Virus record (IMG/VR): IMGVR_UViG_2711768076_000016
Source: a virus
Taxonomy: Duplodnaviria > Heunggongvirae > Uroviricota > Caudoviricetes
Strand: one strand, 5' to 3'
Length of the DNA stretch: 29,766 bases
Under the pieces are notes generated by a model. The model searched no databases and was not told the origin of the DNA. It was given only the letters and a program-made list of their open reading frames with translations. Position 1 is the first letter of the stretch; each line of letters opens with the position of its first letter. Below, piece after piece: positions 11,279 to 29,766 of this stretch. The translations under genes and the position numbers were made by a program.

Positions 11279-11301
11279 CCTGTTCTGAAGGGTGAAGAAT
11301 C

Positions 11302-11529
11302 ATGATCCTGAAACAAGATCTTAAATGGTCACCGGACGGTATGCGTGTTGAGGTTATTAGGGCCGGTGAGTATGACGACGGGGCGCTTCCTGCCCGGGTG
11401 CAGGAGATTGCACTTCAGGCCGGGTTAGCAGAGCGCGGAACCAGTGCAAAAAGCAGTAAAGCGGCAAAAGAGAAAAAGCCACGGCCAGTAAAGAGGGATG
11501 AGAATGCTTCTGACACTGGAAGAGATTAA
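11302..11529 (+). CDS. Hypothetical head-module protein (75 aa)
   Basis: ORF in operon context between the capsid and connector genes. Confidence 0.4.
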   Translation: MILKQDLKWSPDGMRVEVIRAGEYDDGALPARVQEIALQAGLAERGTSAKSSKAAKEKKPRPVKRDENASDTGRD

Positions 11530-12715: not shown

Positions 12716-13272
12716 AACTGACGCCTGTTATTGCTGCACTGCGTGCCCGCTGTCCGTATTTTGAAAACCGGGTTGCAGGTGCGGCCCAGTTCAAAAATCT
12801 GCCGGAGGTCGGAAAGCTGAAACTCCCGGCGGCATATGTTGTACCGGGTGATGATTCTCCGGGAGAAAACAAAAGCCAGACCGACTACTGGCAGGCGCTG
12901 AAAGAGGGTTTCTCCGTGATTGTCATACTGAGTAACGGGCGTGATGAGCGCGGTCAGTTTGCCTCGTATGATGTGGTGGACGATGTCCGGCAGATGCTCT
13001 TTAAGGCTCTGCTGGGCTGGAACCCGGAGGCGTGCGGTAACCCGATTACCTATGACGGCGGCACGCTGCTGGATCTGAATCGTCATGAGCTGATTTATCA
13101 GTTCGATTTTTCGGTCATCAGCGAGCTGACTGAAGACGATACCCGCCAGCAGGATGATCTGAACAGTCTGGATGAACTGCAAACGCTGGCGATTGATGTT
13201 GATTATCTCGATCCCGGTAACGGGCCTGACGGCGATATCGAACATCACACAGAAATAACCATTCCTTCCTGA
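12712..13272 (+). CDS. Tail completion / terminator-like protein
   Basis: 186-aa ORF, ATGA-coupled to the upstream gene, immediately before the sheath region. Confidence 0.4.
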   Translation: MKLTPVIAALRARCPYFENRVAGAAQFKNLPEVGKLKLPAAYVVPGDDSPGENKSQTDYWQALKEGFSVIVILSNGRDERGQFASYDVVDDVRQMLFKALLGWNPEACGNPITYDGGTLLDLNRHELIYQFDFSVISELTEDDTRQQDDLNSLDELQTLAIDVDYLDPGNGPDGDIEHHTEITIPS

Positions 13273-13280
13273 GGATCCTC

Positions 13281-13451
13281 ATGTTTGTGAAACCTGTTAA
13301 AGGGCGGTCAGTGCCTGACCCTGCCCGCAGCGACCTTTTGCCCGCCGAAGGGCGAAATGTTGACGAGAACAACTACTGGCTGCGCCGTGAAGCAGCTGGT
13401 GATATCCGGCGCGTGAATAAAAAGGTGAACACCGATGACGATAAGCTTTAA
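13281..13451 (+). CDS. Small protein (56 aa) preceding the tail sheath gene, DUF2635-like position
   Basis: ATG 13281 to TAA 13449-13451, translated by hand (MFVKPVKGRSVPDPARSD...); below the ORF-track length cutoff; overlaps the sheath start. Confidence 0.4.
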   Translation: MFVKPVKGRSVPDPARSDLLPAEGRNVDENNYWLRREAAGDIRRVNKKVNTDDDKL

Positions 13452-14931
13452 CACCATTCCGTCGAATACGCTGGTTCCGCTGTTTTATGCGGAAATGGAT
13501 AACCAGGCGGCGAATACTGCACAGGACAGCGGAGCATCGCTGCTGATTGGTCATGCCAGTAACGGTGCAGAGATTGTTGCCAACAGTCTGGTGCTGATGC
13601 CGTCGGCAGACTATGCACGCCAGATTTGTGGTGCGGGAAGTCAGCTGGCGCGTATGGTCGAGGCTTATCGCCAGACCGACCCGTTTGGTGAGCTGTATGT
13701 GATTGCCGTTCCGGAAGCCACAGGCGCGGCGGCAACGGTTACGCTGACGGTGACCGGGGAAGCAACCGAAAGCGGCACGGTGAATGTCTATGTGGGACGT
13801 ACCCGCGTGCAGGCTCCGGTGACCAACGGCGATAACGTCACGACGATTGCCAGCAGTATCAAAGATGCCATCAATGCCGTTCCGGCCCTGCCGTTTACGG
13901 CTTCATCTTCGGCAGGTGTGGTCACACTGACCGCGCGTCATAAGGGGCTTTGCGGGAATGAAATTCCTGTCAGCCTCAATTACTACGGCTTTGGTGGGGG
14001 CGAAGTGCTGCCAGCGGGCGTACAGATTGCCGTGGCGACGGGTACCGCCGGAACGGGTGCTCCGGTTCTCACCGGCGCGGTGGCTGCAATGGCGGATGAG
14101 CCGTTTGATTATATCGGCCTGCCGTTCAACGACACGGCCTCCGTTAACACGCTGGTGACCGAGATGAACGATACCAGCGGTCGCTGGAGCTATGCGCGTC
14201 AGCTGTATGGTCATGTGTATACGGCAAAGATCGGCACGCTGTCAGAACTGGTGACCGCAGGTGACCAGTTTAACCAGCAGCACATTACCCTGGCGGGGTA
14301 CGAAAAAGAGACCCAGACGCCTGCCGACGAACTGGCGGCAAGCCGTACCGCCCGCGCAGCGGTGTTTATTCGCAACGATCCGGCACGTCCCACGCAGACC
14401 GGTGAGCTGGTGGGTATGCTGCCTGCGCCGAAGGGGAAACGGTTCACGATGACCGAACAACAGACCCTGCTGTCTCATGGCGTGGCAACGGCGTATGTCG
14501 AAAGCGGGGTACTGCGCATTCAGCGTGATGTCACCACGTACAGGAAAAACGCTTACGGGGTTGCGGATAACAGCTACCTCGACAGTGAGACACTGCATAC
14601 CAGCGCGTATGTACTGCGCAAACTGAAATCCGTCATTACCAGTAAGTACGGGCGTCACAAGCTTGCCAGTGACGGTACCCGCTTTGGTCCCGGTCAGGCG
14701 ATTGTCACCCCGGCGGTGATCAAAGGGGAACTGCTGGCAACCTACCGTCAGCTTGAGCGTGCGGGGATCGTGGAAAACTACGAACTGTTTAAGCAGTACC
14801 TGGTTGTGGAGCGTGATGCCAGCGATCCGAACCGCCTGAACACGCTGTTCCCGCCTGACTATGTTAACCAGTTGCGTGTCTTTGCCGTGGTTAACCAGTT
14901 CCGTCTTCAGTATTCAGAGGAGTCTGCATAA
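13435..14931 (+). CDS. Contractile tail sheath protein (Mu gpL-like)
   Basis: 498-aa ORF followed by tube, chaperone and tape-measure genes in Mu-like order. Confidence 0.7.
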   Translation: MTISFNTIPSNTLVPLFYAEMDNQAANTAQDSGASLLIGHASNGAEIVANSLVLMPSADYARQICGAGSQLARMVEAYRQTDPFGELYVIAVPEATGAAATVTLTVTGEATESGTVNVYVGRTRVQAPVTNGDNVTTIASSIKDAINAVPALPFTASSSAGVVTLTARHKGLCGNEIPVSLNYYGFGGGEVLPAGVQIAVATGTAGTGAPVLTGAVAAMADEPFDYIGLPFNDTASVNTLVTEMNDTSGRWSYARQLYGHVYTAKIGTLSELVTAGDQFNQQHITLAGYEKETQTPADELAASRTARAAVFIRNDPARPTQTGELVGMLPAPKGKRFTMTEQQTLLSHGVATAYVESGVLRIQRDVTTYRKNAYGVADNSYLDSETLHTSAYVLRKLKSVITSKYGRHKLASDGTRFGPGQAIVTPAVIKGELLATYRQLERAGIVENYELFKQYLVVERDASDPNRLNTLFPPDYVNQLRVFAVVNQFRLQYSEESA

Positions 14932-15287
14932 TGGCCCGTATCGGGGGAACCTGTTATTTCAAAATTGACGGTCAGCAGCTATCGCTGACCGGCGGCATTG
15001 AGGTGCCCATGAACAGGACGGTCAATGATGACATCATCGGCCTGGACGGTTCAGTGGACCGCAAGGAAACTCACCGTGCGCCCTATGTCAAAGGGACCTT
15101 CAAGGTGCCGAAGAATTTTCCGGTGAGCAAAATCACCTCGTCTGATGAGATGACCATCACTGCCGAGCTGGCGAACGGTCAGGTCTATGTACTGTCGTCT
15201 GCCTGGCTGCACGGCGAAGCGAACCATAATGCCGAAGAAGGCACGGTTGATCTTGAGTTCCACGGTGAAGAAGGGGATTACCAGTAA
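14931..15287 (+). CDS. Tail tube protein (Mu gpM-like)
   Basis: 118-aa ORF immediately after the sheath gene. Confidence 0.6.
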   Translation: MARIGGTCYFKIDGQQLSLTGGIEVPMNRTVNDDIIGLDGSVDRKETHRAPYVKGTFKVPKNFPVSKITSSDEMTITAELANGQVYVLSSAWLHGEANHNAEEGTVDLEFHGEEGDYQ

Positions 15288-15705
15288 TGAAAGAGCTTGA
15301 GTTAAAGAAACCGATTACTGCTCATGGCGAGACACTCTCCGTACTTGAGTTTGATGAGCCCACCGGGAAAGATGTCCGCGAGCTGGGGTATCCCTACCAG
15401 ATGAATCAGGATGAGTCAGTCAGACTTCTGGCGCATGTGGTATCGAAATACATTGTGCGGCTGGCGAAAGTGCCGCAAAACTCTGTCGACCAGATGTCTC
15501 CGGCAGACCTGAATGCAGCGGCGTGGCTTGTGGCCGGTTTTTTCCTCCAGGCCTGACGGCTGAATACCTCACTGATCGCTTCTTTGACTGCGCCAGTTAC
15601 TGGCGCATTAATCCTTTCGAATTGCTGAATATGCCGATCAGTGAAATTCCCTTGCTGGTCAGTCAGGCAAACAGGATAGAGCAGGAGAAACGCACACATG
15701 GCTGA
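15287..15705 (+). CDS. Tail assembly chaperone with a putative programmed -1 frameshift extension
   Basis: Zero-frame ORF 15287..15556 (89 aa). Slippery heptamer T_TTT_TTC at 15538-15544 leads into the -1 frame ORF that ends at 15705, just overlapping the tape-measure start. Confidence 0.5.
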
Positions 15706-17530
15706 ATTTGAGCTTAAGGCGTTGATCACCGGTGTCGACAGACTTTCTCCCGCGCTGTCGAAAATGCAAAAGAAAATCCGGGGATTTAAACGCCAGGCGG
15801 AAGAAGCATCACAGGGTGGGCTGGCGCTTGGTGGCGGACTGGCAGCGGGTCTGACGCTTTCCCTGAAATCTTATGCCGATCAGGAAAACGCCGCCACCGG
15901 GCTGAAAGTCGCCATGATGGATGCGAACGGCGAGGTCGGAAAGAGCTTTCAGGACATCAATAAACTGGCTATTGGCCTGGGTAACCAGCTACCCGGTACA
16001 ACGGCTGATTTCCAGAACATGATGCAGATGCTGGTGCGTCAGGGGATCCCGGCAGAAAATATTCTTGGCGGTGTGGGTAAAGCGACAGCTTATCTTGCGG
16101 TACAACTGAAAAAAACACCGGAAGCGGCTGCTGAGTTTGCTGCAAAGATGCAGGATGCTACCGGAACGGCGTCAGAAGACATGATGGGGCTGTTCGACAC
16201 TATCCAGAAGGCGTTTTATCTGGGCGTTGACGATACCAACATGTTGTCCTTCTTCACTAAAACCAGTTCTGTTCTGAAGATGGTGAACAAGGACGGTCTT
16301 CAGGCTGCACAGAGCCTTGCCCCCATCAGCGTCATGATGGATCAGATGGGGATGAACGGGGAGTCGGCAGGTAATGCCCTGCGAAAAGTTATCCAGTCCG
16401 GATTAAGCGTTAAGAAAATCAGGGACGTTAATAAAGTTATGGCCCGCCAGAAACTCGGGGTACAGCTCGATTTTACTGACGGCAAAGGGAGTTTTGGCGG
16501 TCTTGATAACATGTTCAGGCAACTGGCAAAGCTGCGAAAACTGACCGACGTTAAGCGAACCGGTGTACTTAAGGCAATATTTGGTGATGATGCCGAAACC
16601 CTTCAGGTGGTCAATGCTCTGATCGATAAAGGAAAGGATGGTTACGATCAGATCCAGCAGAAGATGAATAAACAGGCCAGCCTGAATAAACGTGTTCAGG
16701 CCCAGCTTGGTACGCTGTCCAACCTGTGGGAGGCAATGACGGGGACCGCAACTAACGGCCTTGCGGCTATTGGCGGCGCATTTTCTGGTGACGTCAAAAA
16801 TATCACGCAATGGCTGGGGGAGTTAGGGGAAAAATTCACGAAGTTTGCGGATGAAAATCCCCGGGTTATTCGCGGCGTCGTCGGGCTTGCTGCCGGTCTT
16901 GCGATTCTGAAACTGGGATTGATGGGCGTGGGCAGTGCCATCAGTATCGTCAGCAGGATCATGTCGATGACGCCGATTGGCATGATTGCGACGGCGATAG
17001 CCCTGGCTGCGGGATTAATTATCACTAACTGGGATGTTGTCGGACCTTATTTTAAGAAGCTCTGGGAAACCATTAGTCCTTATTTTGAGGCTGGCTGGGA
17101 ACTTCTGAAGAAGGTTTTTGCCTGGTCGCCGCTGGGGATGGTGATCAATAACTGGGGACCGGTTGTTAAGTGGTTTCAGGATATGTGGGATAAGCTGAAG
17201 CCGATTATTGAATGGTTTACCGACAGTTCCGGTGACACGGTCGATGCCATTAACTCGGCGCAGTGGGGCGCGGGTGCTTATGATGCTTATGGGACGGGAA
17301 TACCGCCACGGGGATACACTCCTTATCCGGAGGTGGATCCGGCTCAGGCAAACAACGCCTCCGGTGCCACAGGTCCGAATCCCTTCATGATTAATAAAGC
17401 TACCGCGCCAAAAGTTGATGGTGAGATCAAGGTATCATTTATAAATATGCCACCAGGTATGCGGGTTACGGAAACACGCTCCAGTGGCATTGATATAAAT
17501 CACGATGTTGGCTATACCCGATTTTGGTAG
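15698..17530 (+). CDS. Tail tape measure protein
   Basis: 610-aa ORF, Ala/Gly/Leu-rich with hydrophobic stretches; position after the chaperone. Confidence 0.8.
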   Translation: MAEFELKALITGVDRLSPALSKMQKKIRGFKRQAEEASQGGLALGGGLAAGLTLSLKSYADQENAATGLKVAMMDANGEVGKSFQDINKLAIGLGNQLPGTTADFQNMMQMLVRQGIPAENILGGVGKATAYLAVQLKKTPEAAAEFAAKMQDATGTASEDMMGLFDTIQKAFYLGVDDTNMLSFFTKTSSVLKMVNKDGLQAAQSLAPISVMMDQMGMNGESAGNALRKVIQSGLSVKKIRDVNKVMARQKLGVQLDFTDGKGSFGGLDNMFRQLAKLRKLTDVKRTGVLKAIFGDDAETLQVVNALIDKGKDGYDQIQQKMNKQASLNKRVQAQLGTLSNLWEAMTGTATNGLAAIGGAFSGDVKNITQWLGELGEKFTKFADENPRVIRGVVGLAAGLAILKLGLMGVGSAISIVSRIMSMTPIGMIATAIALAAGLIITNWDVVGPYFKKLWETISPYFEAGWELLKKVFAWSPLGMVINNWGPVVKWFQDMWDKLKPIIEWFTDSSGDTVDAINSAQWGAGAYDAYGTGIPPRGYTPYPEVDPAQANNASGATGPNPFMINKATAPKVDGEIKVSFINMPPGMRVTETRSSGIDINHDVGYTRFW

Positions 17531-17558
17531 CCAGGATTCCCCTCACAGGTATTGCTGG

Positions 17559-17586
17559 TTGTAAGTCATAAATAGAGTGATAGAAT
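17559..17586 (+). promoter_or_regulatory. Candidate sigma70 promoter for the tail-module moron (-35 TTGTAA, 16-bp spacer, -10 TAGAAT)
   Basis: Hexamers read directly, about 36 bp upstream of ATG 17622. Confidence 0.35.
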
Positions 17587-17621
17587 TAATGCACATTTAG
17601 AAAAATGTTAATAGGCGAAAA

Positions 17622-18152
17622 ATGAAAGGCTATATCACAGCAAGTGTAATTCTTGGAGCAGCGGCTATTTTTTCATCTCTCATAATCTCTGGCAACATCT
17701 CCTTTAAAGATGAACATATTATTCAGTTATCTGGAGGAGCCATAAAACTTGGTGATGTTTATAAAGAAAATAAATTGATAAGTGCAAAGATTATTTTTCC
17801 AGATAATCAGGGTGAACAGATTCTTGTTGTCGACGGCAATCCTGAAAACTTTAAGGAGGATTTTCAGGAGAAATTAAATAAAGTAATAAAAACTTTAAAT
17901 GCGTCAAAGAAAAAAGATGAAGAGAAAGTTAGCCTGGATAATTTAAGTGTTATTGAAGAGTCTAAACTAGAGCTCGTTTCTGCGGTGCGTTACTCTGCTC
18001 AGTATGTTCCTATGTTTACTCTGACGCTGGACAAAAAAGAAATTACCATGCCTAAAAATACGGTAATATTTCCATTTGCCAGCGATGAAACAGCTAAGTA
18101 TTTAAATGAACAACAGCAAAAGTATAAAGATTCGTTGTTTCTGACTCGCTAA
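17622..18152 (+). CDS. Hypothetical protein with N-terminal signal/anchor (176 aa); moron inside the tail module
   Basis: Strongly AT-rich ORF inserted between the tape-measure and DNA-circularization genes; N-terminal hydrophobic segment (ASVILGAAAIFSSLIISG) then a Lys/Glu-rich soluble domain; has its own terminator. Confidence 0.5.
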   Translation: MKGYITASVILGAAAIFSSLIISGNISFKDEHIIQLSGGAIKLGDVYKENKLISAKIIFPDNQGEQILVVDGNPENFKEDFQEKLNKVIKTLNASKKKDEEKVSLDNLSVIEESKLELVSAVRYSAQYVPMFTLTLDKKEITMPKNTVIFPFASDETAKYLNEQQQKYKDSLFLTR

Positions 18153-18170
18153 TTAATAAAATTCATTACA

Positions 18171-18197
18171 AGGCCACCTTCTAATAGGTGGCTTTTT
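18171..18197 (+). terminator. Rho-independent terminator after the moron
   Basis: Stem AGGCCACCT / AGGTGGCTT with loop TCTAAT followed by a T-tract. Confidence 0.55.
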
Positions 18198-18213
18198 AAT
18201 TTTCGGAGTATAT

Positions 18214-19542
18214 ATGACGTGGAAAGACAGGCTTCAGGACGCGTCATTTCGCGGCGTGCCGTTTAAGGTTGAAGAAGAAAGTGCGGGAACCGGTCGCCGT
18301 GTGGAAACACATGAATACCCGAACCGCGACAAACCCTATACCGAAGACCTGGGGAAAATCACTTTTCGCCCGTCCATCACGGCTTATGTGGTGGGAGATG
18401 ACTGCTTTGACCAGCGCGATCGCCTGATTGAAGCGCTGAATAAACCAGGTCCCGGCACGCTTGTCCACCCGACATATGGTGAGCTGAAAGTCTGTGTTGA
18501 CGGGGAAGTTCGGGTCAGCACATCGAAAAGTGAAGGGCGTATTGTCCGCTTTGACCTGAAGTTTGTCGAAGCAGGAGAACTCTCTTACCCCACATCAGGT
18601 GCGGCGACGGCGCAGACGCTGATGTCATCCTGTTCTGCACTGGATGACTGCATCAGTGACAGCTTCAGCGGTTTCAGTATCGATGGTGTGGCGGATTTCG
18701 TGCAGAACGACGTTATCGGTAATGCCAGCATAATGCTGGGGTATGTTTCTGATGCGATGAAAGTGGTGGATTCTGCCGTATCGGATGCCGCCAGGCTGTT
18801 GCAGGGGGATATCTCGGTACTTCTGCCGCCGCCATCGTCAGGCAAAAATTTCGTTGAACAGGTGCAGAAAATGTGGCGTACCGGGAAACGCCTTTATGGT
18901 AACGCCAGCGACCTGGTCACCATGATCAAAACGCTTTCTGGTGTCAGCCTCGGCAGCGATTTGCAACCGCGCGGCGTCTGGAAAACGGACAGTAAAACCA
19001 CCGCCACAGCGACGCAGCAGCGTAACATGGTTGCCAGCACCCTTCGTACGACTGCAATCAGCGAAGCGGCGTATGCCGTTACCCGATTGCCTGCGCCAAC
19101 AACTTCTGCGGTGATGCAGAATGCCGCAGTGGGGCAGTCAACAACACCCGCGCAGAGCTCCGGCTGGCCTGCCGTCACGCATCCGGTGCTGAACAATGCA
19201 CCGGCGGTAAAAAACACGGTTGACCTGCCAACGTGGGAAGAACTGACCGACATTCGCGACACACTGAATACGGCAACTGATAAGGAGTTGTCCCGTACAA
19301 CCAGTGATGCGCTGTTTCTGGCGCTGCGCCGGGTGAAAGCAGATCTGAATGCGGATATCAACACGCGCCTTGAACAGTCTGCACGGATCATTCAGCGCAC
19401 GCCGGATGAGGTTTTACCCGCGCTGGTGCTGGCGGCGACCTGGTTTGATAACGCGGCGCGTGACGCGGACATTATCCGGCGTAATGCCATTACGCATCCC
19501 GGCTTTGTGCCGGTGATCCCTCTGAAGGTGCCAGTGCAATGA
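18214..19542 (+). CDS. DNA circularization protein (Mu gpN-like)
   Basis: 442-aa ORF directly after the tape-measure region, as in Mu-like tails. Confidence 0.55.
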   Translation: MTWKDRLQDASFRGVPFKVEEESAGTGRRVETHEYPNRDKPYTEDLGKITFRPSITAYVVGDDCFDQRDRLIEALNKPGPGTLVHPTYGELKVCVDGEVRVSTSKSEGRIVRFDLKFVEAGELSYPTSGAATAQTLMSSCSALDDCISDSFSGFSIDGVADFVQNDVIGNASIMLGYVSDAMKVVDSAVSDAARLLQGDISVLLPPPSSGKNFVEQVQKMWRTGKRLYGNASDLVTMIKTLSGVSLGSDLQPRGVWKTDSKTTATATQQRNMVASTLRTTAISEAAYAVTRLPAPTTSAVMQNAAVGQSTTPAQSSGWPAVTHPVLNNAPAVKNTVDLPTWEELTDIRDTLNTATDKELSRTTSDALFLALRRVKADLNADINTRLEQSARIIQRTPDEVLPALVLAATWFDNAARDADIIRRNAITHPGFVPVIPLKVPVQ

Positions 19543-20659
19543 ACGATAACGTCACGCTACGGGTAAATGGCCGAGAGTGGAATGGCTGGACATCGGTGCG
19601 CATCGGTGCCGGTATTGAACGGCTGGGGGGGGGGNNNNNNNNNNNNNNNNNNNNNNNNNNNNNNNNNNNNNNNNNNNNNNNNNNNNNNNNNCCCGCCAGT
19701 GGCCGGGAGATGAGGGTATCACCACGCTTCAGCCGCGCATTAAAAATGGTTCAAAAGTGGAAGTGCTGATTGGTGATGAGCTGGTGATCACCGGCTGGGT
19801 GGAGGCGACCCCCGTTCGTTACGATGCCCGTTCGGTCAGCACCGGTATTGCCGGACGTAGTCTGACTGCTGACCTGATTGACTGTGCAGCCGAACCGACA
19901 CAGTTTAACGGACGATCGCTGGTACAGATTGCGCAGGCGCTTGCTGCGCCTTTCGGCATTGAGGTGGTGAACAGCGATGCGCCGTCGGGTGTTATTCCGG
20001 ATGTCCAGCCTGATCACGGTGAAACGGTGATCGAGGTGATCAACAAAATACTCGGTCAGCAGCAGGCGCTGGCTTATGACGACCCGCACGGCAGGCTGGT
20101 GATTGGTGGTATTGGCTCAACGCGGGCACATACCGCGCTGGTACTTGGGGAAAACATCCTTTCCTGTGATACGGAGAAGAGTATCCGGGAGCGGTTTTCA
20201 GTTTACCAGGTGGCGGGGCAGCGTGCCGGAAACGACGATGATTTCGGTGAGGCCACCACCACCGCGCTGCGGGCCCGCACAGAGGATGCATTTATTGCCC
20301 GTTACCGTCCGATGTATATCAGGCAGACAGGGCAGGCTACGGGGGCAGGCTGTATTGCGCGTGCTGACTTTGAAGCCCGACAACGGGCGGCGCGGACGGA
20401 TGAAACCACCTATGTGGTGCAGGGCTGGCGACAGGGTAACGGTACGCTGTGGCAGCCCAACCAGCGGGTGATTGTCTTCGATCCGGTCTGTGGTTTCGAC
20501 AATACCGAACTGCTTGTCTCGGAAGTCACGTTTACTCAGGACCAGAATGGCACCCTGACGGAAATCCGTGTCGGCCCACCTGATGCTTATCTGCCTGAAC
20601 CCGAAGCCCCCGGCGCGCGGAAAAAGAAAAAAGCCAGAGTACAGGAGGACCCGTTCTGA
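19539..20659 (+). CDS. Baseplate hub protein (Mu gpP-like), interrupted by an assembly gap
   Basis: ORFs 19539..19769 and 19757..20659 are a single gene split by the N run; combined length of about 373 codons fits. Confidence 0.5.
19635..19691. other. Assembly gap (57 N) preceded by a 10-nt poly-G tract
   Basis: Read directly from the sequence. Confidence 0.95.
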
Positions 20660-21207
20660 TGAGGACGATTGAAGCCATGCAGCGACAACTTCTCGGCCTG
20701 ATTGGGCGGGCAGTGGTGAAAAGCATCAGTGCCGCCACGAAATGTCAGACCGTGGATGTGTCCCTGATTGCCGGTGAACCCAAAGCCGGGGTTGAACATC
20801 TTGAACCCTACGGTTTTACCGCAAGGGCAAACAGCGGTGCGGAAGCGGTGGTGTTGTTTCCGGATGGCGACCGTTCTCATGCGGTGGTTGTTACGGTGTC
20901 GGACCGGCGCTACCGCCTGAAAGGGCTGCAGACGGGTGAGGTGGCTGTCTATGACGATCAGGGGCAGTCCGTGACGCTGACCCGGGAGGGGATCGTGGTG
21001 GACGGTGCAGGTAAAACGATCACGTTTCGCAATTCACCTAAAGCACGTTTTGAAATGGACCTGGAAGTGACAGGACAGGTGAAAGACCTGTGCGACTCCA
21101 GCGGCACCACCATGTCAGCGATGCGGCTTGCCTATAACGGGCATCGTCACAGAGAGAACGGTCAGGGCAGTAACACCGACAAACCTGATAAAGCGATGGA
21201 GGCATGA
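20659..21207 (+). CDS. Baseplate spike / assembly protein (gpV- or Mu gp45-like)
   Basis: 182-aa ORF, ATGA-coupled, in the baseplate block. Confidence 0.55.
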   Translation: MRTIEAMQRQLLGLIGRAVVKSISAATKCQTVDVSLIAGEPKAGVEHLEPYGFTARANSGAEAVVLFPDGDRSHAVVVTVSDRRYRLKGLQTGEVAVYDDQGQSVTLTREGIVVDGAGKTITFRNSPKARFEMDLEVTGQVKDLCDSSGTTMSAMRLAYNGHRHRENGQGSNTDKPDKAMEA

Positions 21208-21632
21208 TGGAACTGTGGCTGACGGTGAACGGTAAACGCACCTGCGCCAGCGCACCGCTGGATCCGCTGACCCGCGCCGTGGTGATTTCCCTGTTTACCT
21301 GGCGGCGGGCGGAGCCTGATGACAACGCCGACGTCCCGATGGGATGGTGGGGGGATACCTGGCCTGCGGTACAGAATGACCGTTACGGCTCCCGACTGTG
21401 GCTGCTTCAGCGCAGCAAACTGACCAATCAGCTGGTGCTGACGGTAAGGGGGTATATCCGCGAATGCCTGCAATGGATGATTGATGACGGCGTGGTGTCC
21501 CGTATTGATCTGGATATCCGCCGCACCGGGATTAATGAACTGGGTAACAGTATCACTCTCTGGCGTCGTGACGGACCGGTAATGATTTCTTTTGATGATC
21601 TGTGGAGTGCGATAACGCATGGCGGACAGTGA
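21204..21632 (+). CDS. Baseplate protein (Mu gp46-like)
   Basis: 142-aa ORF in the baseplate block. Confidence 0.5.
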   Translation: MMELWLTVNGKRTCASAPLDPLTRAVVISLFTWRRAEPDDNADVPMGWWGDTWPAVQNDRYGSRLWLLQRSKLTNQLVLTVRGYIRECLQWMIDDGVVSRIDLDIRRTGINELGNSITLWRRDGPVMISFDDLWSAITHGGQ

Positions 21633-22677
21633 ATTTCAGCGCCCGACGCTGGCTGAAAATATCAGTATGCTCCGTAACGATTTATTCGCCAGGCTGGACG
21701 TCAGCGACACGCTCCGGCGCATGGATGAAGACGTGCGGGCAAAGGTGTATGCGGCGGCGCTGCATACGGTTTACGGGTACATCGATTATCTGGCAATGAA
21801 CATGCTGCCTGACCTGTGCGATGAGTCCTGGCTGGCGCGACATGCTGCGATGAAACGGTGTCCGCGCAAGGGGGCCACGGCTGCCAGCGGGTATATGCGC
21901 TGGGAAGGTGTCAGCGATGGCCTGAAGGTGACCGCCGGGAGTGTTATTCAGCGCGATGACCTGGTTCAGTATACTGCAACTGCCGATGCAACCAGCTCCG
22001 GTGGTGTCCTGCGCGTGCCGATCGCCTGCTCAAATGCAGGCGCGGTCGGTAACGCTGACGACGGTACGGCATTAATCCTGGTCACGCCGGTGAATGGTCT
22101 GCCGTCTTCCGGTGTGGCTGACACCCTGACAGGCGGATTTGATACTGAAGAGCTGGAAACGTGGCGCGCCCGCGTCATTGAGCGGTATTACTGGACGCCG
22201 CAGGGCGGGGCTGACGGGGACTATGTCGTATGGGCTAAAGAAGTGCCCGGCATTACCCGCGCATGGACATACCGTCACTGGATGGGAACGGGAACTGTCG
22301 GTGTGATGATTGCCAGCAGTGACCTGATTAATCCCATTCCGGAAGAATCAACGGAAACGGCGGCAAGACAACATATCGGGCCACTGGCCCCGGTGGCAGG
22401 CTCTGATTTGTATGTGTTCAGGCCGGTGGCACATACGGTGGATTTTCATATCCGCGTGACGCCGGACACACCGGAAATACGGGCTGCCATCACCGCGGAG
22501 TTGCGTTCGTTCCTGCTGCGTGATGGTTATCCGCAGGGAGAACTGAAGGTATCGCGTATCAGTGAGGCGATTTCCGGTGCGAACGGGGAATACAGCCATC
22601 AGTTGCTTGCACCGGCAGACAATATCTCCATTGCAAAAAATGAACTGGCGGTACTGGGGACGATTTCATGGACGTGA
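21619..22677 (+). CDS. Baseplate J-like protein (Mu gp47-like)
   Basis: 352-aa ORF; size and position upstream of the tail-fibre genes. Confidence 0.65.
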
Positions 22678-23252
22678 CAAACGATGATTACATCCGTCTG
22701 TTGTCGGCACTGTTGCCCCCCGGTCCGGCGTGGTCAGCCAGCGATCCGGCGATTGCCGGTGCGGCACCGTCATTAACCCGCGTTCATCAGCGTGCGGATG
22801 CCCTGATGCGGGAGCTGGATCCGCGCACCACCACTGAACTGATAAACCGCTGGGAGCGTCTGTGCGGTCTGCCGGATGAATGTATTCCCGCAGGGACACA
22901 GACCCTTCGCCAGCGTCAGCAACGGCTGGATGCGAAGGTTAACCTGGCGGGTGGCATCAACGAGGATTTTTATCTTGCACAGCTTGCTGCCCTGGGCAGA
23001 CCAGATGCCGCCATCACGCGATACGACAAAAGCACGTTCACCTGCTCATCGGCCTGTACTGACGCTGTGAACGCGCCTGAATGGCGGTATTACTGGCAGG
23101 TCAACATGCCAGCCGCCACCAACACCACCTGGATGACATGTGGCGATCCCTGTGATTCCGCACTGCGTATCTGGGGCGACACAGTTGTCGAATGTGTGCT
23201 TAACAAACTCTGCCCGTCGCATACCTACGTAATTTTTAAATATCCGGAGTAA
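22668..23252 (+). CDS. Tail protein (Mu gp48-like, YmfQ-like)
   Basis: 194-aa ORF immediately upstream of the tail fibre; same size and position as e14 YmfQ (recalled, not searched). Confidence 0.55.
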
Positions 23253-23255
23253 TCC

Positions 23256-23894
23256 ATGCATCGTATAGACACGAAAACCGCGCAGAAGGATAAGTTCGGC
23301 GCGGGTAAGAACGGTTTTACCCGTGGTAACCCCCAGACCGGCACGCCTGCCACCGATCTGGATGATGACTACTTTGACATGTTGCAGGAAGAGCTCTGCA
23401 GCGTGGTGGAGGCATCCGGTGCCAGCCTGGAGAAGGGGCGGCATGACCAGCTGCTTACCGCGCTTCGTGCGCTGCTGTTAAGTCGCAAAAATCCGTTTGG
23501 CGATATCAAATCGGACGGCACGGTGAAAACGGCTCTTCAAAACCTTGGTTTGGGAGAAGCGGCAAAACGGAATGTAGGTAACGGGCAAAATGGTCTGAAT
23601 GGGTATGTAACGATTCCGTTAATTATTTCAGGTTCCCGGAGAACACTGATTATTCAGTGGGGGCAGGCGAGATTTGGTGGGTCTGGTGGTGAAGATGCCG
23701 GATATCTTAATGATTTTCCTTTTGCCTTTCCGTCAGCATGTTATGGAATGATAGTTAGTCATGTGGGGCATACACCTTCAGGCGCAGGAATCCTGTCGGC
23801 TTCTGCAATTACATCAAATCAGTTCCGCGGTTTTTCAAGCATAGCGACTGCTGCAAATGCTGTATTAGGTCGTTATATCGCTATAGGGGGTTAA
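23256..23894 (+). CDS. Tail fibre protein: constant N-terminal part plus the currently expressed variable C-terminal part
   Basis: 212-aa ORF; the inverted repeat and crossover site lie inside it (23533-23590); the C-terminal third is AT-rich. Confidence 0.7.
23533..23558 (-). repeat. Left crossover site of the invertible segment (Pin/Gin/Hin-type 26-bp site)
   Basis: Read on the minus strand: TTCTCCCAAACC-AA-GGTTTTGAAGAG. Lies within a 46-bp inverted repeat (23545-23590) that matches 25031-25076 exactly. Confidence 0.65.
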
Positions 23895-23895
23895 T

Positions 23896-24333
23896 ATGTT
23901 TTATAGTCCATCATTAAACATTTTTGTGAATCCTGCGCTTAAGGATGATTACATTAATGCAAATTCATGGCCAGATGATGCTCTGGCTGTCAGTGATGAT
24001 GTTTATAATGAATTTGCAATCAATACGCCCCCATATGACAAAATTCGTGTTGCAGGAAAAAATGGATTACCCACATGGGCACTAATACCTCCACCATCGC
24101 ATGAAGAACTTATTCAACAGGCAGAATCAGAAAGGCAATTATTGCTTAATCAGGCCAACGAATACATGAACAGTAAACAATGGCCCGGTAAAGCCGCTAT
24201 TGGTCGTCTGAAAGACGAGGAACTGGCACTATATAATTTGTGGCTGGATTACCTGGACGCACTGGAACTGGTGGATACCTCCAGTGCTCCAGATATTGAA
24301 TGGCCTACACCTCCGGTAACTCAGGCCAGCTAA
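23896..24333 (+). CDS. Tail fibre assembly protein (Tfa), expressed orientation
   Basis: 145-aa ORF directly after the fibre gene; conserved Tfa C-terminus (VDTSSAPDIEWP). Confidence 0.65.
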   Translation: MFYSPSLNIFVNPALKDDYINANSWPDDALAVSDDVYNEFAINTPPYDKIRVAGKNGLPTWALIPPPSHEELIQQAESERQLLLNQANEYMNSKQWPGKAAIGRLKDEELALYNLWLDYLDALELVDTSSAPDIEWPTPPVTQAS

Positions 24334-24700
24334 TCTCAGGAGCCGTCGAAGTGTCGACGGCTTTTACTTCTTTTTTGTAGTCCATCCAGGCGGATAGTTT
24401 TTCTTTATCTGTACTGCTGATATCACCAAGCATTAATTCCACTCGCCAGTCAGCTGTGACATTATCGGCATGAGCAAGTAACTGCATTCGCTGATTTTCA
24501 GCACGTGCGACATAATCAATCGCCGGAGATTTCAGTACCGGTAAACCATTTTCATCTGACGTGATTAATTTACCCCCTTCCTGCTGTCCGGCAATTAATT
24601 CATTGTATAAGTCTGTACTTATCTCAACAATGTCAGCAGGCATGTCGCTGTTTATACCATCAAAGAAAAAACCATTAGTCGATTTTGAGAAATAAATCAT
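24305..24700 (-). CDS. Alternative tail fibre assembly protein (Tfa'), silent orientation
   Basis: Minus-strand ORF 24305..24730, likely start at the Met at 24700; C-terminus VDTSTAPEISWP parallels the + strand Tfa; converges tail-to-tail with it. Confidence 0.65.
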   Translation of the reverse strand: MIYFSKSTNGFFFDGINSDMPADIVEISTDLYNELIAGQQEGGKLITSDENGLPVLKSPAIDYVARAENQRMQLLAHADNVTADWRVELMLGDISSTDKEKLSAWMDYKKEVKAVDTSTAPEISWPELPEV

Positions 24701-24708
24701 AGATATAC

Positions 24709-25076
24709 CTATACACCGATTGCTACCCAAAAACAGGACCTTTCATATTTGACAATTTCTCCCTGAGATATACCGCCAACAATTATATAGAACTGTGATT
24801 TGGTGATATCAGAACAGTTCGCAATGCCCATTGCAGATATACCAGCCAACGACGTTGTATGTGGCACAGCCAACAGCGCAAGTGAACGATTTGGGAATGT
24901 TACCGGGTAAGTCACCGTATAGTTTGATGCTCCACTGACAATACCCCACTGAATAATCAGACCTGAAGGGAGTTTTTGAAAACCCGTTGATGAAAGTGAA
25001 CTGGCAAACGCCGCCATATCCGGAATTTGGTTTTGCCCGTTACCTACATTCCGTTTTGCCGCTTCTCCCAAACCAA
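24709..25076 (-). CDS. Alternative variable tail-fibre C-terminal segment, promoterless until inversion
   Basis: Minus-strand frame begins with the same residues encoded by the inverted repeat ([14 protein letters not shown]) as the + strand fibre, then diverges. Confidence 0.6.
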
Positions 25077-25088
25077 CGTTTATGAAAA
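25063..25088 (+). repeat. Right crossover site of the invertible segment
   Basis: TTCTCCCAAACC-AA-CGTTTATGAAAA; resembles the hix/gix-type site layout (12 + 2 + 12). Confidence 0.65.
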
Positions 25089-25142
25089 TGCAGAAATAAC
25101 GAGAAAATGGCATCATTCCTGCTTTTGTCAGAGGGAGCTACC

Positions 25143-25334
25143 ATGCTTATTGGCTATGTTTGCGTATCAACAAATGACCAGAAAATCGATCTACAACGTA
25201 ATGCGTTGAACTGTGCAGGATGCGAGCTGATTTTTGAAGACAAGATAAGCGGTACAAAGTCCGAGAGCCTAGGGCTGACAGTGCTGTTCTTGATGCAAAT
25301 TAAAGGATTTAATAGTGAGTTGCGGCCTTACTAA
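25143..25334 (+). pseudogene. pin: Truncated serine DNA invertase (Pin/Gin/Hin family), N-terminal about 45 residues only
   Basis: MLIGYVCVSTNDQKIDLQRNALNCAGCELIFEDKISGTK matches the invertase catalytic N-terminus including the active-site Ser. Similarity ends near 25278 and the frame stops after 18 unrelated codons. GAGGGA Shine-Dalgarno at 25131-25136. Confidence 0.7.
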
Positions 25335-25345
25335 TGTAAGGCCGC
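25322..25345. terminator. Hairpin between the truncated invertase and the convergent restriction-like gene
   Basis: Stem GCGGCCTTA / TAAGGCCGC with loop CTAATG; 22 bp from the stop of the minus-strand gene. Confidence 0.4.
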
Positions 25346-25367
25346 TATAATCATTTTATTAATTGCA

Positions 25368-27257
25368 TTAATCGTATTTTGGCCATACTTTCAATGCAAT
25401 TTCCCCCAACTTTTTACCTCGCTCCTGTATTTCACTCTCATCCCATTTATCCTTAAGTATAAGTGGTATGTTCAGTCGTAGATTGGTGTGGACGATGAGA
25501 GCATCACGTTTTTTCAGAAATACAGCATTCTGAACGGAACGGTTTACGCTAAGGTTAAGCAAAGTTAGATTTCCCAACGTAGCTATCGCTTGTTGCCGTT
25601 TCCTTACCAGTAGCTGTTCAGGGGTAAGATCGGTTCCAGACAGAACAATTTGGTTCATTACCGTAGCATCTGAATTTGTCACCATATGACCATTTTCGAG
25701 AGGCCAACAGGAATACCAACTTTGAGGCATAAGATGATCGATATCGAGATTAGAAAGATTTGGAACATCAGGCTTTTCTGTCTTCACTTGGCGACAAAGT
25801 TCTCTTTCAAGTTCCGTTAACATTGAGCGCATTTTCGGTGCGTCGAGCCTGCCAGGATAAAGTGGAGCATTGATGCAAGCGTTGAGAAATTCTGAGTCCC
25901 CAGGCCAACGTGAGGCTTCGCCATTTAAGCTATTGAGGATATTACGTAACTCAACACTGGAAATTTCCGTTTTAGACAAGTGTCGCAATACATTCATAAA
26001 TACATTGTTGTAATTCTTTGGCGTCAGGCCACATACGGATCTTCGTACTACGTAGGAGACAAGATCATTATACATGGCTGCTTTCTCATCATCGGCGATG
26101 TTAGCTATCGAAATGAACAAAGCAAGCGGATAGAGTGTCGTCACATCATAGGCTGCGATGCGATGTCCAAAGTGTGAGATGGGGGTTGTGCCAAAACCAC
26201 CAACCAATTCTTTATATTGTGATGCATATTGTTTGAGGCGCTTTACTTGCAGATCTGCTCGTTGTGAAGGCAAGTCCTTACTTACATAATCACGATACTC
26301 ATTGTAAAGGCGAGACAGATCAATTTCACGCTGCCTTTCTGATTGCAATGTCGCATGTACAAGCCACTCCATGCGTGGTTTATTAATACGTCCACGGCGT
26401 TGCTTTTCCGACCAGTATTTATCTTCAAAGATCTTCCACTCATTTTCATATAATTCAATAGCATTAATATTTTCATGCTCAGCGCACATAAAGATATAGT
26501 TGCGAATAAGATCCGTTGCATGAAGTTCCGCTCCTCGCCCATTTAATGTTTCAAAAATTATTTGGGCATCATCTTCAGCTTCGAGAAATATGCTTACCAG
26601 TTTCAGATCCGTCAAGACAGCCTCAATTAGTGCTACAGCATTTTCTTGTGGTGAGTGGTTTTCTATTTTAATCCATTTTATAAAGGCTTCAGTAAAAAAC
26701 CATAATGCCTCTAGTGACGGCGGGTGGTTGAAATGTTTACGTAACGTACCATGTTGCGTGAAGCTATCAGAAAATACATTACGGAGATCGTCAATATTAT
26801 CAACATTAAGACTTTGAATAAAATGAGTTTGATCTCGAAAAGTTGGCCACAGTTTGAAGCATTCTACCTTTTTATTTCTCATCGTTGCTTCGTTTGTATT
26901 TTTCAAGCAAGTCAATACTAACCCTTCCAGTTCAGAAAGGCCTGTAGCACGCAATGATAATCGAATGGATGCCAGAATATATTGAAGAGTGGTTAAACGT
27001 TGCTGGCCGTCAATAATATGTATGGTATCTACACCTAACAAGCTGTTTTTGAGTTGAGGTTCCAGCACCACCGCGCCGAGGAAATGAGGGGTTGGTTTTG
27101 TTCCCGAAAGTCGGCTCTGTGCTTTTTCGAAGATATCCTCCAACAAAGCTGACCATTGGTTTCGTTGCGTCCATACGTAGGCACGTTGATAGAATGGAAC
27201 ACGATATTGTCGTTGATTTTGGAAAATTTGCTGGATGGTTAGCGTTTCGGATTTCAT
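25368..27257 (-). CDS. DUF262/DUF1524 fusion protein; putative GmrSD-family type IV (modification-dependent) restriction endonuclease
   Basis: 629-aa minus-strand ORF. N-terminal DUF262/ParB-like motifs (FYQRAYVW, IIDGQQRLTT, FETLNGRGAELHATDLIRN). C-terminal DUF1524/His-Me-finger motifs (DIDHLMPQS, GNLTLLNLSVNRSVQN). AT-rich, convergent with the phage late operon. Confidence 0.7.
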   Translation of the reverse strand: MKSETLTIQQIFQNQRQYRVPFYQRAYVWTQRNQWSALLEDIFEKAQSRLSGTKPTPHFLGAVVLEPQLKNSLLGVDTIHIIDGQQRLTTLQYILASIRLSLRATGLSELEGLVLTCLKNTNEATMRNKKVECFKLWPTFRDQTHFIQSLNVDNIDDLRNVFSDSFTQHGTLRKHFNHPPSLEALWFFTEAFIKWIKIENHSPQENAVALIEAVLTDLKLVSIFLEAEDDAQIIFETLNGRGAELHATDLIRNYIFMCAEHENINAIELYENEWKIFEDKYWSEKQRRGRINKPRMEWLVHATLQSERQREIDLSRLYNEYRDYVSKDLPSQRADLQVKRLKQYASQYKELVGGFGTTPISHFGHRIAAYDVTTLYPLALFISIANIADDEKAAMYNDLVSYVVRRSVCGLTPKNYNNVFMNVLRHLSKTEISSVELRNILNSLNGEASRWPGDSEFLNACINAPLYPGRLDAPKMRSMLTELERELCRQVKTEKPDVPNLSNLDIDHLMPQSWYSCWPLENGHMVTNSDATVMNQIVLSGTDLTPEQLLVRKRQQAIATLGNLTLLNLSVNRSVQNAVFLKKRDALIVHTNLRLNIPLILKDKWDESEIQERGKKLGEIALKVWPKYD

Positions 27258-27519
27258 TGTTTACCTATAAATAACATTAAGTGACATTCCACAAGAGTAA
27301 GAAATTCATCTGAGTCAGAACAATCATTTTTATGTAGTTATGATACAGTGTATTTGTTACTGGTGAAGTAAAAATAAGAAACCCCGCTTTTGAATGCTGA
27401 CGCGCTACGGTTTCATTGGATATTTTTTGTCTCTCCTCCATCCCGTTGGTGTTCTGTTTAGACTGATAACTTGCTGTTTTAATTGATATTAGTTTCTTGC
27501 GCCGCCCAATCATGGTTGG

Positions 27520-27539
27520 TGGGTTGGTGGGTGGGTGGG
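27520..27539 (+). repeat. G-quadruplex-type motif (GGG TTGGT GGG T GGG T GGG) within short GGTKGGT repeats
   Basis: Read directly; lies about 265 bp upstream of the start of the minus-strand restriction-like gene. Confidence 0.5.
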
Positions 27540-27604
27540 AGTTAAATCCACATTGGTATGAAGAACATAGAATATGAATTAGTGTTTCAGAATTGCTTCA
27601 GCCA

Positions 27605-27934
27605 TCACTTTTTAATACGTTCAATTTGAATGTTTATTTCCGAAACAATTTTTTCAGGTTTCAGTCCCTCGTTAGATTGCACAAAATCTCTAATTTGCAT
27701 CATTCGATGTGCACAAATTTGTAATTCGCTATAAACACTTAGCTCGTCAGATTCATTTTGAGATTGTTCACCTGTTTAAAATTCTACATAAGTATGTGGC
27801 GGATTGTGATAAACACGAGAAATCGGGGTTGGCCACCATTCCTCACCGGTCACTACGTCCGCATCGAATAGTACAGTTTTGTCAATTTCCATTAATTTCT
27901 GGATAAGAACAGAAGTTTTCAAGCGAACCTCCAT
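27605..27934 (-). pseudogene. Small minus-strand reading frame (about 109 codons) interrupted by one in-frame TAA
   Basis: Hand translation on the minus strand: MEVRLKTSVLIQKLMEIDKTV...HTYVEF, stop at 27776-27778, then TGEQSQNESDELSVYSELQICAHRMMQIRDF...IERIKK. No clear Shine-Dalgarno. Confidence 0.25.
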
Positions 27935-28075
27935 TTTGCCATAAAGTGGTTATCAAAACGCTACGTAAACTATACAAAATCAGCGAGTTATGGTGAAGGT
28001 AAAAAAACAAGTTTAGATGTTCGTTAAGTATAAAATTGTTTTAATTCAATTGGATATAATAATTTTCTAAATCTA

Positions 28076-28240
28076 ATGTTACGCCATATGGGCTGGACTG
28101 AAGCCGCAGACCTGATTGTTAAAGGTATGGAAGGCGCAATCAACGCCAAGACTGTAACCTATGACTTCGAACGTCTGATGGAAGGCGCTAAACTGCTGAA
28201 ATGTTCAGAATTTGGTGATGCGATCATCAAGAACATGTAA
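28076..28240 (+). pseudogene. icd: 3'-terminal fragment of isocitrate dehydrogenase gene (displaced icd end, icdC-like) marking the attR region
   Basis: Encodes [54 protein letters not shown] followed by a stop, which matches the C-terminus of E. coli Icd as I recall it. No upstream icd sequence precedes it; e14-type phages integrate within the icd 3' end. Confidence 0.8.
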
Positions 28241-28263
28241 TCACTACATGTGTTTAATATTGC

Positions 28264-28295
28264 AACGGGCGTATAACACGCCCGTTGTTTTATTT
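28264..28295 (+). terminator. Rho-independent terminator downstream of the icd fragment
   Basis: Stem AACGGGCG / CGCCCGTT with loop TATAACA followed by GTTTTATTT. Confidence 0.6.
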
Positions 28296-28342
28296 ATGTA
28301 GGTATTATTAATAGCATATCGAGCATATTTATATAAAACCCT

Positions 28343-28666
28343 TTACTTGAGCCCATATGGGCATATTTTTATAATGCAACTATTATGCAAACATTTATTT
28401 GTTATTTTGCTTTCTCCTGGAGGACACTCTTGACTGCTTTTGAGTAGACTCCATAAATCCTTGTTGAATGGTGCGATGTTATAAATAGTAATAGGATATT
28501 CTTTATCTTTAAGGATAATTCCAGATTTAACCGGTGTAAATATACTGCCAGGAGGGAGAAATATAGTAGATTGATACCAGATGATCATTTTCATATTACC
28601 CCATATGGCTGAAAAAGATATGCCGCATGAAGGTTGAATTATCGTGTCAATTACTATCCACTTCAT
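28343..28666 (-). CDS. iraM: Anti-adaptor protein IraM-like (107 aa)
   Basis: 107-aa minus-strand ORF ([17 protein letters not shown]...) matching recalled IraM length and sequence character; synteny icd-fragment / iraM / ycgX as in E. coli K-12 downstream of e14. Confidence 0.55.
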
Positions 28667-29123
28667 TTGTTATGTCTTATCCCACGGTATTTAATATAGT
28701 TCATTTGGATGTTCATTTCTTTATTTTGCATATGAGTATATTACCCCTTCAAAAAATAAATTAATTAAAACGATTGCTTATATAAAACAAAATTTAAAGC
28801 AAGGAATCTCAATGGATGTTAAACAAAATGAGATTTAGTGAAAACAATAAATTATTCACTTCGTTTTAGATTTGTTTAGCTATAATGTTATACATTCAAA
28901 TGACTGAACATCCTGTAATTAAAACATAGCCTTTATGCTACTTTGTGCCAATTTGCTAAACATTATGGTTGCCTTTTTATATAACGATAATAATGAATAT
29001 AAGCATGACATGAGAATAAGGTTTCAATTTTTGAGTTATATAGGAAAGGTTTAACCTGTTCCTGGCTAAAATACATATAACTGGATGATGACTAAACCAA
29101 AACACATGTGCGTTAAGTATTGA

Positions 29124-29152
29124 AACGGGCGTATGGCACACCCGTTGTTTTT
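29124..29152 (+). repeat. Second, diverged copy of the icd-terminator-like element
   Basis: ACATGTGCGTTAAGTATTGAAACGGGCGTATGGCACACCCGTTGTTTTT is about 80% identical to 28246-28292 (ACATGTGTTTAATATTGCAACGGGCGTATAACACGCCCGTTGTTTTA). Confidence 0.45.
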
Positions 29153-29361
29153 ATAAATATATTAACCGTTATAAAATAACGTATAGAAAGTCAAGTGATC
29201 ACATTTCAAATATCAATTTGATAGTATTGGCATGGTGATTATTTATGGGTAGCAATAAAAGGACAGTATTTATCATCCATAGGGATAGTCTCTGTACTTT
29301 TATTCCCATTATGCTAATGCCTTACTGAATTATGAAGCATTTCTTAAGCATCCAACTTTAG

Positions 29362-29766
29362 CTAGATTAATGGTTTATTATTTTCTACATCTTCAATATA
29401 TAAAAGCGTATTATCAATGGCGTAGTAACTGCGTTTGTTATGATTAACATCAGTAACCCACCGGAAAACGCCCGCGCCTGCTAGTGTTGAACAGTATTCC
29501 CGAAATGTAGATTTTCCGCAAATATGAAGCAATGCGGCCTCTTTTATTTTAGCAGGGTTCTTGGTCGTACTAACTTTTAACAGGTTCCTGGTTCCTCTTA
29601 ATAACAAAACCGTGTCATCGTGAGTAATAATTCTGATGTTATCCGTAGCCAGATAATAAATGTAATGTGCAATACGGTGATGTTTTAATTCTGAATAAAA
29701 CCAGGAGAAGTTTTGCTCTTTTCTCACTTGCTCAAACATCTTTTGAAAAACAACGACCTGATCCAT
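29362..29766 (-). CDS. ycgX: YcgX-like protein (134 aa); start codon at the window edge
   Basis: 134-aa minus-strand ORF; length and position downstream of iraM match E. coli ycgX (recalled). AT-rich. Confidence 0.5.
   Translation of the reverse strand: MDQVVVFQKMFEQVRKEQNFSWFYSELKHHRIAHYIYYLATDNIRIITHDDTVLLLRGTRNLLKVSTTKNPAKIKEAALLHICGKSTFREYCSTLAGAGVFRWVTDVNHNKRSYYAIDNTLLYIEDVENNKPLI

Follow-up and report, generated by a model that had tools for sequence, protein, structure and literature searches.

The 29,766-nt stretch analyzed here (the window; IMG/VR record IMGVR_UViG_2711768076_000016) contains two copies of the icd terminator, termed T1 and T2, on either side of an 812-bp islet that carries iraM. 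We find it probable that an ancient integration into icd left T2 as the relic of its attR-side terminator, that the islet is the whittled-down remnant of the element that integrated, and that two phage generations have left their traces at the icd hotspot. In the literature we found no description of T2 or of a repeat-bounded iraM islet. The window was found to be 100% identical to NZ_CP030939.1 (E. coli AMSHJX01), and its features are listed in Table 1. The genes that the sequence-only reading had called iraM-like and ycgX-like were labeled correctly (NF007393, 172 bits, and DUF1398, respectively). The small proteins encoded by ymgK and ymgL have been detected experimentally (PMC6001520).

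Table 1. Features of the window (positions counted from its first nucleotide).
Feature	Position	Strand	Remarks
Resident 41-kb e14-type prophage, right ~28 kb	1..28075	+	Late, baseplate and tail-fibre genes; Pfam tail genes
GmrSD-family type IV restriction enzyme, 629 aa	25368-27257	-	Pfam GmrSD_N and GmrSD_C; right-end cargo, in the slot of mcrA in e14
icd' pseudogene, last 54 codons and stop	28076-28240	+	Moved to attR by the resident prophage; RefSeq: 5'-truncated isocitrate dehydrogenase pseudogene
T1, intact icd rho-independent terminator	28246-28291	+	Hairpin 28262-28288 plus T-run
iraM islet, 812 bp, probable minimal remnant of an older element	28292..29103	-	Absent or present across E. 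coli; homology to the inner part of the 6.3-kb L220 island
iraM	28343-28666	-	107 aa; NCBIfam NF007393, 172.2 bits against a cut-off of 121
ymgK, small-protein gene, 14 codons	28919-28963	-	Left of T2
T2, decayed icd terminator copy	29104-29151	+	Probably left over from the attR side of an earlier integration
Older downstream flank of icd (ymgL, ycgX)	29152..29766	-	Adjoins the single terminator in iraM-less genomes
ymgL, small-protein gene	29199-29309	-	Right of T2
ycgX/DUF1398	29362-29766	-	Pfam E 1e-47

T1 (ACATGTGTTTAATATTGCAACGGGCGTATAACACGCCCGTTGTTTT) starts five bases past the icd' stop codon, and T2 (ACATGTGCGTTAAGTATTGAAACGGGCGTATGGCACACCCGTTGTTTT) is located exactly 860 bp downstream of T1. 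A repeat finder matched 28249-28291 to 29109-29151 with 84% identity over 43 nt without gaps, while 41 of 48 columns were identical in a gapped local alignment reaching from ACATGTG at the left edge to GTTGTTTT at the right edge. This agrees with the earlier description of a second copy of the element about 860 bp further on, at roughly 80% identity. The pattern AACGGGCGTATRRCACRCCCGTTGTTTT matched the window at just two sites, T1 and T2, and matched none of 100 dinucleotide-preserving shuffles. A loose hairpin pattern of the type AACGGGCG...CCCGTTGTTTT does arise by chance in many unrelated genomes, but it is hardly conceivable that T1 and T2 resemble each other by a coincidence of GC-rich hairpins or as members of a dispersed repeat family. 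Their similarity extends past the stem (ACATGTG, TTAA.TATTG and the loop TAT..CA), the right flank of T2 is the same sequence as the right flank of the single terminator in iraM-less genomes, and in the E. coli haplotype termed L220 the left flank of T2 leads into the icd stop region. In the window itself, local alignment gave no homology to the icd coding sequence left of T2 (score 14 compared to a shuffle mean of 16.8), and the case for an older integration therefore rests on the rare L220 haplotype being more ancestral.

Position 28076 is the attR of the resident 41-kb e14-type prophage. The terminal 54 icd codons and their terminator are present there without the rest of the gene, as had been noticed from the sequence alone, and the open reading frame listing contained no icd sequence 5' of 28076 in the window. 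A full-length icd is located 41,174 bp upstream of attR in the same genome record. In the record of the attL side, icd occupies 7163-8413 (L133 coordinates) and the attL block 8249-8467 aligns with window positions 28076-28294. The block common to attL and attR is 219 bp long, runs from ATGTTACGCCA (window 28076) to the end of the terminator (28294) and contains scattered substitutions, the last 165 bp of icd and the terminator at attL being a diverged, phage-supplied copy. The intact icd of prophage-free genomes aligns to the window starting exactly at 28076. Past icd at attL come two cargo genes, then intE/xisE (RefSeq annotation; 4.6-5.9 kb from the icd end). The proposal of an e14-type attR within icd, with a phage-supplied 3' end at the other junction, is supported by the full-length icd with a diverged 3' end at attL and by intE/xisE nearby. 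The position of the crossover core follows a secondary summary (PMC6379469) and the observed boundary of the common block. The attL terminator, T', is AACGGGAGCGTAACGCTCCCGTTTTTTT, and its stem differs from that of T1 by compensatory changes.

In E. coli K-12, the icd 3' end at attL comes from e14, and the pseudogene left at attR is icdC (Hill, Gray & Brody 1989, per PMC6379469). The resident prophage resembles integrations of the e14 and phage 21 type in that about 165 bp of the icd 3' end plus the terminator are duplicated at both of its junctions. Like e14, it also carries intE/xisE close to attL and ends on the right with a defence gene, which is GmrSD in the window and mcrA in e14. It differs from e14 in being complete at 41 kb, whereas e14 is defective and 15 kb long, and in that the terminator it brought along has diverged, with compensatory changes in the stem. 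T' was found to be closer to the native icd terminator of Citrobacter sp. (AACGGGAGCCGAGAGGTTCCCGTTTTTTT; L227) than to that of E. coli, a hint that the icd 3' block of the resident phage may have been captured from a Citrobacter-like host.

The right part of the resident prophage contains a tail-fibre host-range segment (23540-25081) that looks invertible. Inverted repeats of 51 nt with 98% complementarity (23540-23590 and 25031-25081) enclose two alternative fibre C-termini (Gp53-like_C) and two Caudo_TAP assembly genes in opposite orientation. In e14, pinE occupies the corresponding position after the tail-fibre segment; in the window no Pin/Gin-type invertase open reading frame was found after 25081, where just 250 bp precede the GmrSD gene. 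The ~0.8 kb between the GmrSD gene and attR (27258-28075) is AT-rich and contains small unassigned open reading frames only.

Based on the sequence past the terminator, at least two families of icd-targeting prophages can be distinguished, one characterized by three TTCCCCAAAAC repeats and one by repeated TTATCAAAA motifs. The flank loci group as L004, L063 and L069 (O157:H7, Escherichia sp. and E. albertii) and as L055, L124, L033, L220 and L133. The TTCCCCAAAAC and TTATCAAAA repeats are plausibly arm-type integrase binding sites. The flank of the TTATCAAAA-type prophages is also similar to the chromosomal sequence on the right of T2 (TAACCGTTATAAAAT).

The islet was found in genomes without the prophage. 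AR_452 (L002) is prophage-free and carries an intact icd followed by T1, iraM, ymgK, T2, ymgL and ycgX at 99.8% identity to the window, and T2 is therefore independent of the resident prophage. The T1-iraM-ymgK-T2 arrangement was present in 3838 of the 5426 complete E. coli genomes (~71%), counted as genomes covering at least 80% of window positions 27900-29766. A junction query of the same 5426 genomes identified 1037 that lack exactly 860 bp, corresponding to one repeat plus the spacer, and have one terminator left. ATCC 11775, ATCC 25922 and ST131, which belong to phylogroup B2, are among the iraM-less genomes. In strain DLL7555 (L003) the distance between the icd stop codon and ycgX is exactly 860 bp shorter than in the window, and its single terminator has icd to the left and the right flank of T2 (TATAAATATGTTAACCGTTATAAAATAACG..., ymgL, ycgX) to the right. 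Throughout the iraM-less genomes, the single terminator combines the left flank of T1 with the right flank of T2. CFT073 was previously found to be without iraM, and iraM and iraL to reside in different, horizontally acquired contexts (PMC4045071).

Alignment to the far (attL) end and to prophage-free genomes had been proposed as a check; it gave the 219-bp common block and placed T2 in prophage-free genomes, not originating from the resident prophage. T2 does occupy the same place in prophage-free genomes, but not as the ordinary, unrelated terminator that had been named as the case against a link to integration: it is kin to the icd 3' flank, and no working terminator is predicted.

IS elements were frequently found in the icd-ycgX interval. 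IS200C is present in several genomes, both with and without iraM; other insertions are an IS1 within iraM, an insertion in ECMA0423 located 40 nt past T1 and, in Citrobacter sp., an IS200 remnant located at the corresponding place. The O157:H7 genomes gave a single match, to the attL-side icd end, and no match to iraM, T2 or ycgX; the attR side of the icd locus appears to have been deleted or replaced in these genomes.

In Citrobacter sp., icd and its terminator are separated from ycgX by an IS200 remnant, and neither iraM nor a second terminator copy is present. The iraM-less gene order is therefore the older one and the island an insertion. The YcgX of Citrobacter sp. was the only informative ortholog for an outgroup. 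YcgX homologues labeled E. albertii and Escherichia sp. E10V10 were considered and rejected as paralogues, located in a lambda-like prophage between lysis genes and Nu1 or near fli genes. A scan of 185,579 species genomes for the hairpin pattern gave, among the matches listed, mostly chance hairpins, together with the icd loci of Citrobacter, Shigella, E. albertii and Escherichia sp.; the E. albertii and Escherichia sp. icd loci among these matches were prophage attL junctions only and included no empty-site outgroup. For the B2 genomes, the single terminator without the derived changes of T2 would favor the iraM-less state as ancestral, while the ycgX flank, which is 96-100% identical to that of iraM-carrying genomes, would favor loss of iraM. 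These genomes either never had the island or lost it by recombination between T1 and T2. We regard it as rather unlikely that T1 and T2 are still recombination substrates, for RecA or for Int/Xis of the e14 family provided in trans by a resident prophage like that of the window; the islet would then be a minimal excisable cassette whose precise loss gave rise to iraM-less B2 strains.

T1 and T2 differ markedly in predicted structure. T1 of the window folds with -20.9 kcal/mol (z -4.7) into an 11-bp stem and is called terminator-like by a consensus scan. The fold of T' from the attL of the same prophage has -19.3 kcal/mol (z -3.6), and that of the single terminator of B2 genomes -15.3 kcal/mol (z -2.7). 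The T1 hairpin AACGGGCGTATAACACGCCCGTT was found to be identical in the E. coli haplotypes, the O157 attL, C. amalonaticus and C. braakii. In all three lineages compared, T2 was no better folded than shuffled sequence: -11.4 kcal/mol (z -0.2; -0.17 before rounding) in the window, where the T-run is kept and a C.A mismatch breaks the stem; -11.7 kcal/mol (z -0.5) with an A.G mismatch in K-12-like genomes; and -11.3 kcal/mol (z -1.1) with an A.C mismatch and a broken T-run in L220. The consensus scan did not call T2 as a rho-independent terminator. The defects in T2 are non-compensatory and different in the three lineages, i.e., T2 is under relaxed constraint.

The fixed position of T2 in ~71% of the complete E. 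coli genomes, and the retention of a 6-bp GC-rich stem and the T-run in the window and in K-12-like genomes, would fit a selected functional element, either a terminator or insulator against + strand transcription that comes from the upstream region of iraM or reads through to ymgL/ycgX, or the 3' terminus of a small RNA not yet annotated. We consider this improbable. The T2 folds are at shuffle level and the terminator scan was silent; the stem changed in a different, non-compensatory way in each lineage, with loss of the T-run in L220, whereas the phage copy at attL changed compensatorily. The open reading frame listing contains no + strand gene upstream of T2, and Rfam gave no family at threshold (tpke11 on T1 reached 26 bits, the gathering score being 43, and a snoRNA hit was likewise below threshold; both were taken as noise). 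We suggest that T2, having nothing to terminate on the + strand, would decay neutrally.

A less decayed form of the islet was reached from an IraM variant 74% identical to that of the window, which led through a Logan contig to 19 complete E. coli genomes with a 6.3-kb interval between T1 and T2. In NZ_CP074749.1 (L220) the order is intact icd, T1, GTTAGCCTGCTAACGGTTATCAAAATTTTATCAAAA, a gene for a hypothetical protein of 455 aa, an IS5 fragment, trkG, iraM, a ymgB/ariR-like gene, ...GCTATCAAGAATATGTTAACGCTATACCTA, T2, ymgL, ycgX and bluR. Alignment identified an icd' remnant, ATCAAGAATATGTTAA, directly left of T2, corresponding to the last four icd codons, the stop codon and the spacer. The L220 flank past T1 (GTTAGCCTGCTAACGGTTATCAAAATTTTATCAAAA) recurs past the terminator at the attL of the window's prophage, at the attL of a Shigella flexneri prophage, and in two Citrobacter genomes; in Shigella flexneri the common flank is followed by AAA_21/HNH cargo and then by an integrase. 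Judged by these sequences, the L220 island has a putative attL-type junction on the left, with the P'-type flank by T1, and a putative attR-type junction on the right, with icd' by T2.

Comparison with L220 also identifies what the window has lost. Left of the iraM stop codon the homology between the two reaches a T-run, which in L220 belongs to a different, internal terminator, GCCCCTCTACGAAGGGGCAGTTTTT; a deletion of ~4.9 kb from one T-run to another would explain this. The window is also devoid of the ymgB-like gene of L220 (~0.46 kb). The 216 nt that carry the icd' remnant on the left side of T2 in L220 are absent both from the window and from K-12-like genomes, the junction being ...CCAAAACACAT next to GTGCGTTAAG. 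The 216-nt deletion explains why no icd coding homology is found left of T2 in the window and why the repeat looks terminator-only, and its endpoint is the present left edge (ACATGTG) of the repeat. The sequence GGATGATGACTAAAC left of T2 was considered as a remnant of icd ATCATCAAGAAC and rejected, as it is homologous to a non-icd segment of L220 located 216 nt from the true icd' remnant.

These junctions bear on whether a large prophage was ever present. A small iraM cassette could have been inserted directly into the icd terminator, either as a circle that recombined at an att site made up of the terminator only, or by an insertion that duplicated a long target. This would fit the window, where the repeat is confined to the intergenic terminator (46-48 nt) and icd coding homology is absent left of T2, and a polymorphism of exactly one repeat plus the spacer. 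We nevertheless find it unlikely, since L220 has the P'-type flank by T1, several kb of extra cargo and the remnant of the icd stop region by T2, i.e., the junctions expected from integration inside icd, and since the deletion junctions account for the present repeat edges.

Over the island and on to mid-ycgX, L220 and the common haplotype have diverged by ~20%. Compared to iraM-carrying genomes its identity is 52-84% from T2 to mid-ycgX and 95-99% beyond. The L220 haplotype may come from another lineage, and the same divergence would be consistent with L220 and the common haplotype representing two independent integrations of related elements, which may have occurred. No integrase or phage core genes were found within the 812-bp islet or the 6.3-kb L220 island, so that the identity of the older element is one that we infer; such absence is expected for an advanced remnant. 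T2 had been suggested to be the footprint of an earlier integration and excision event. The integration is supported by the L220 junctions and the icd' remnant, but the excision is not, the islet having decayed by internal deletions.

Altogether, these observations suggest the following history. An older element resembling the e14 family would have integrated into the 3' end of icd and supplied a replacement icd 3' end with its terminator, now T1, which serves icd in prophage-free genomes carrying iraM. The resident terminator, now T2, would have been pushed to the right junction together with the downstream flank (ymgL, ycgX), and iraM would have been located near the right end of the element. 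From the haplotype comparison, three deletions would then have left the 812-bp islet. The first, from the T-run of T1 to that of the internal terminator, would have removed the P'-type flank, the hypothetical gene, the IS5 fragment and trkG; the second removed the ymgB-like gene, and the third the ~216 bp with the icd' remnant left of T2. iraM was presumably kept for its usefulness as a PhoP-regulated RssB anti-adaptor. The recent event can be read directly from the junctions: the 41-kb prophage, which has the same attL-flank type, integrated anew and thereby moved the last 54 icd codons and T1 to attR at 28076. The terminator that it supplied at attL, the third one, is located 41 kb upstream, beyond the window.

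The IraM family (PF11183) comprises only 27 clusters, and all those with a named source are labeled E. coli. The window IraM is 99% identical to the main E. coli cluster, its homologues carry precomputed PF11183 assignments, and it matches phrog_4407. All but one of the diverged IraM homologues examined were located in lambdoid prophages, between Q/stx2AB (or lpxR, or psiE) and nanS and the lysis genes; the exception, P0012, is sited in a non-phage island. The phage copies of iraM are in reverse orientation and read against the late operon. In a lambdoid prophage at icd, with int beside icd, we would expect such a cargo gene to read opposite to icd, as chromosomal iraM does. The nucleotide homology of the phage copies is limited to the coding region (72%); no nucleotide homology to phage DNA was found for the non-coding parts of the islet, and no intact phage was found with trkG-iraM-ymgB beside an icd-type attP. 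We interpret iraM as probably being domesticated phage cargo from the ancient icd integration.

IraM, and the IraL of CFT073, are RssB anti-adaptors of the PmrD family, and iraM has been placed "on the e14 prophage" (PMC4045071). The window gene encodes canonical IraM. It differs from that account in being located outside the e14-type attR, on its own older remnant, and in being present in prophage-free genomes; placing iraM on the e14 prophage is imprecise.

Lambdoid prophages (L130, L221-L223) carry paralogues of both iraM and ycgX (DUF1398) in their late region, in the same relative order and orientation and with nanS and the lysis genes between them. The ycgX beside icd may itself be an older phage remnant. 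No third relic, either terminator or icd' copy, was found right of ycgX, where three haplotypes, compared over as much as 9 kb, gave scores at shuffle level.

Prophage decay with retention of useful cargo, and repeats derived from att sites, are already well known. As in grounded prophages and islets bounded by att repeats, such as the 47-bp argU repeat at DLP12 (PMC6379469), direct repeats from the att region bound the iraM islet, and as in remnants of the DLP12 type, one useful cargo gene is kept in the absence of integrase and structural genes. The islet differs from such remnants in its extreme reduction to 812 bp, with one gene of 107 aa and a 14-aa open reading frame, and in that its repeat is a gene terminator, not an integrase core. 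The repeat is of this kind because the old attR has lost its icd' portion by deletion.

The icd site would thus have been used repeatedly, each phage bringing its own gene 3' end and terminator, so that T', T1 and T2 form a readable row of terminators in differing states of decay. In practical terms, predictors of prophage boundaries often overrun into the iraM-ycgX region, and IMG/VR prophage contigs end ~1.1 kb past iraM. The proposed history would account for the precise absence of iraM from about one fifth of the complete E. coli genomes, among them ST131 and the type strain, and would give a concrete origin to a well-studied regulator of RpoS stability. If T1 and T2 do recombine, RpoS stabilization under Mg2+ starvation would be a gene-content switch driven by phage att relics.
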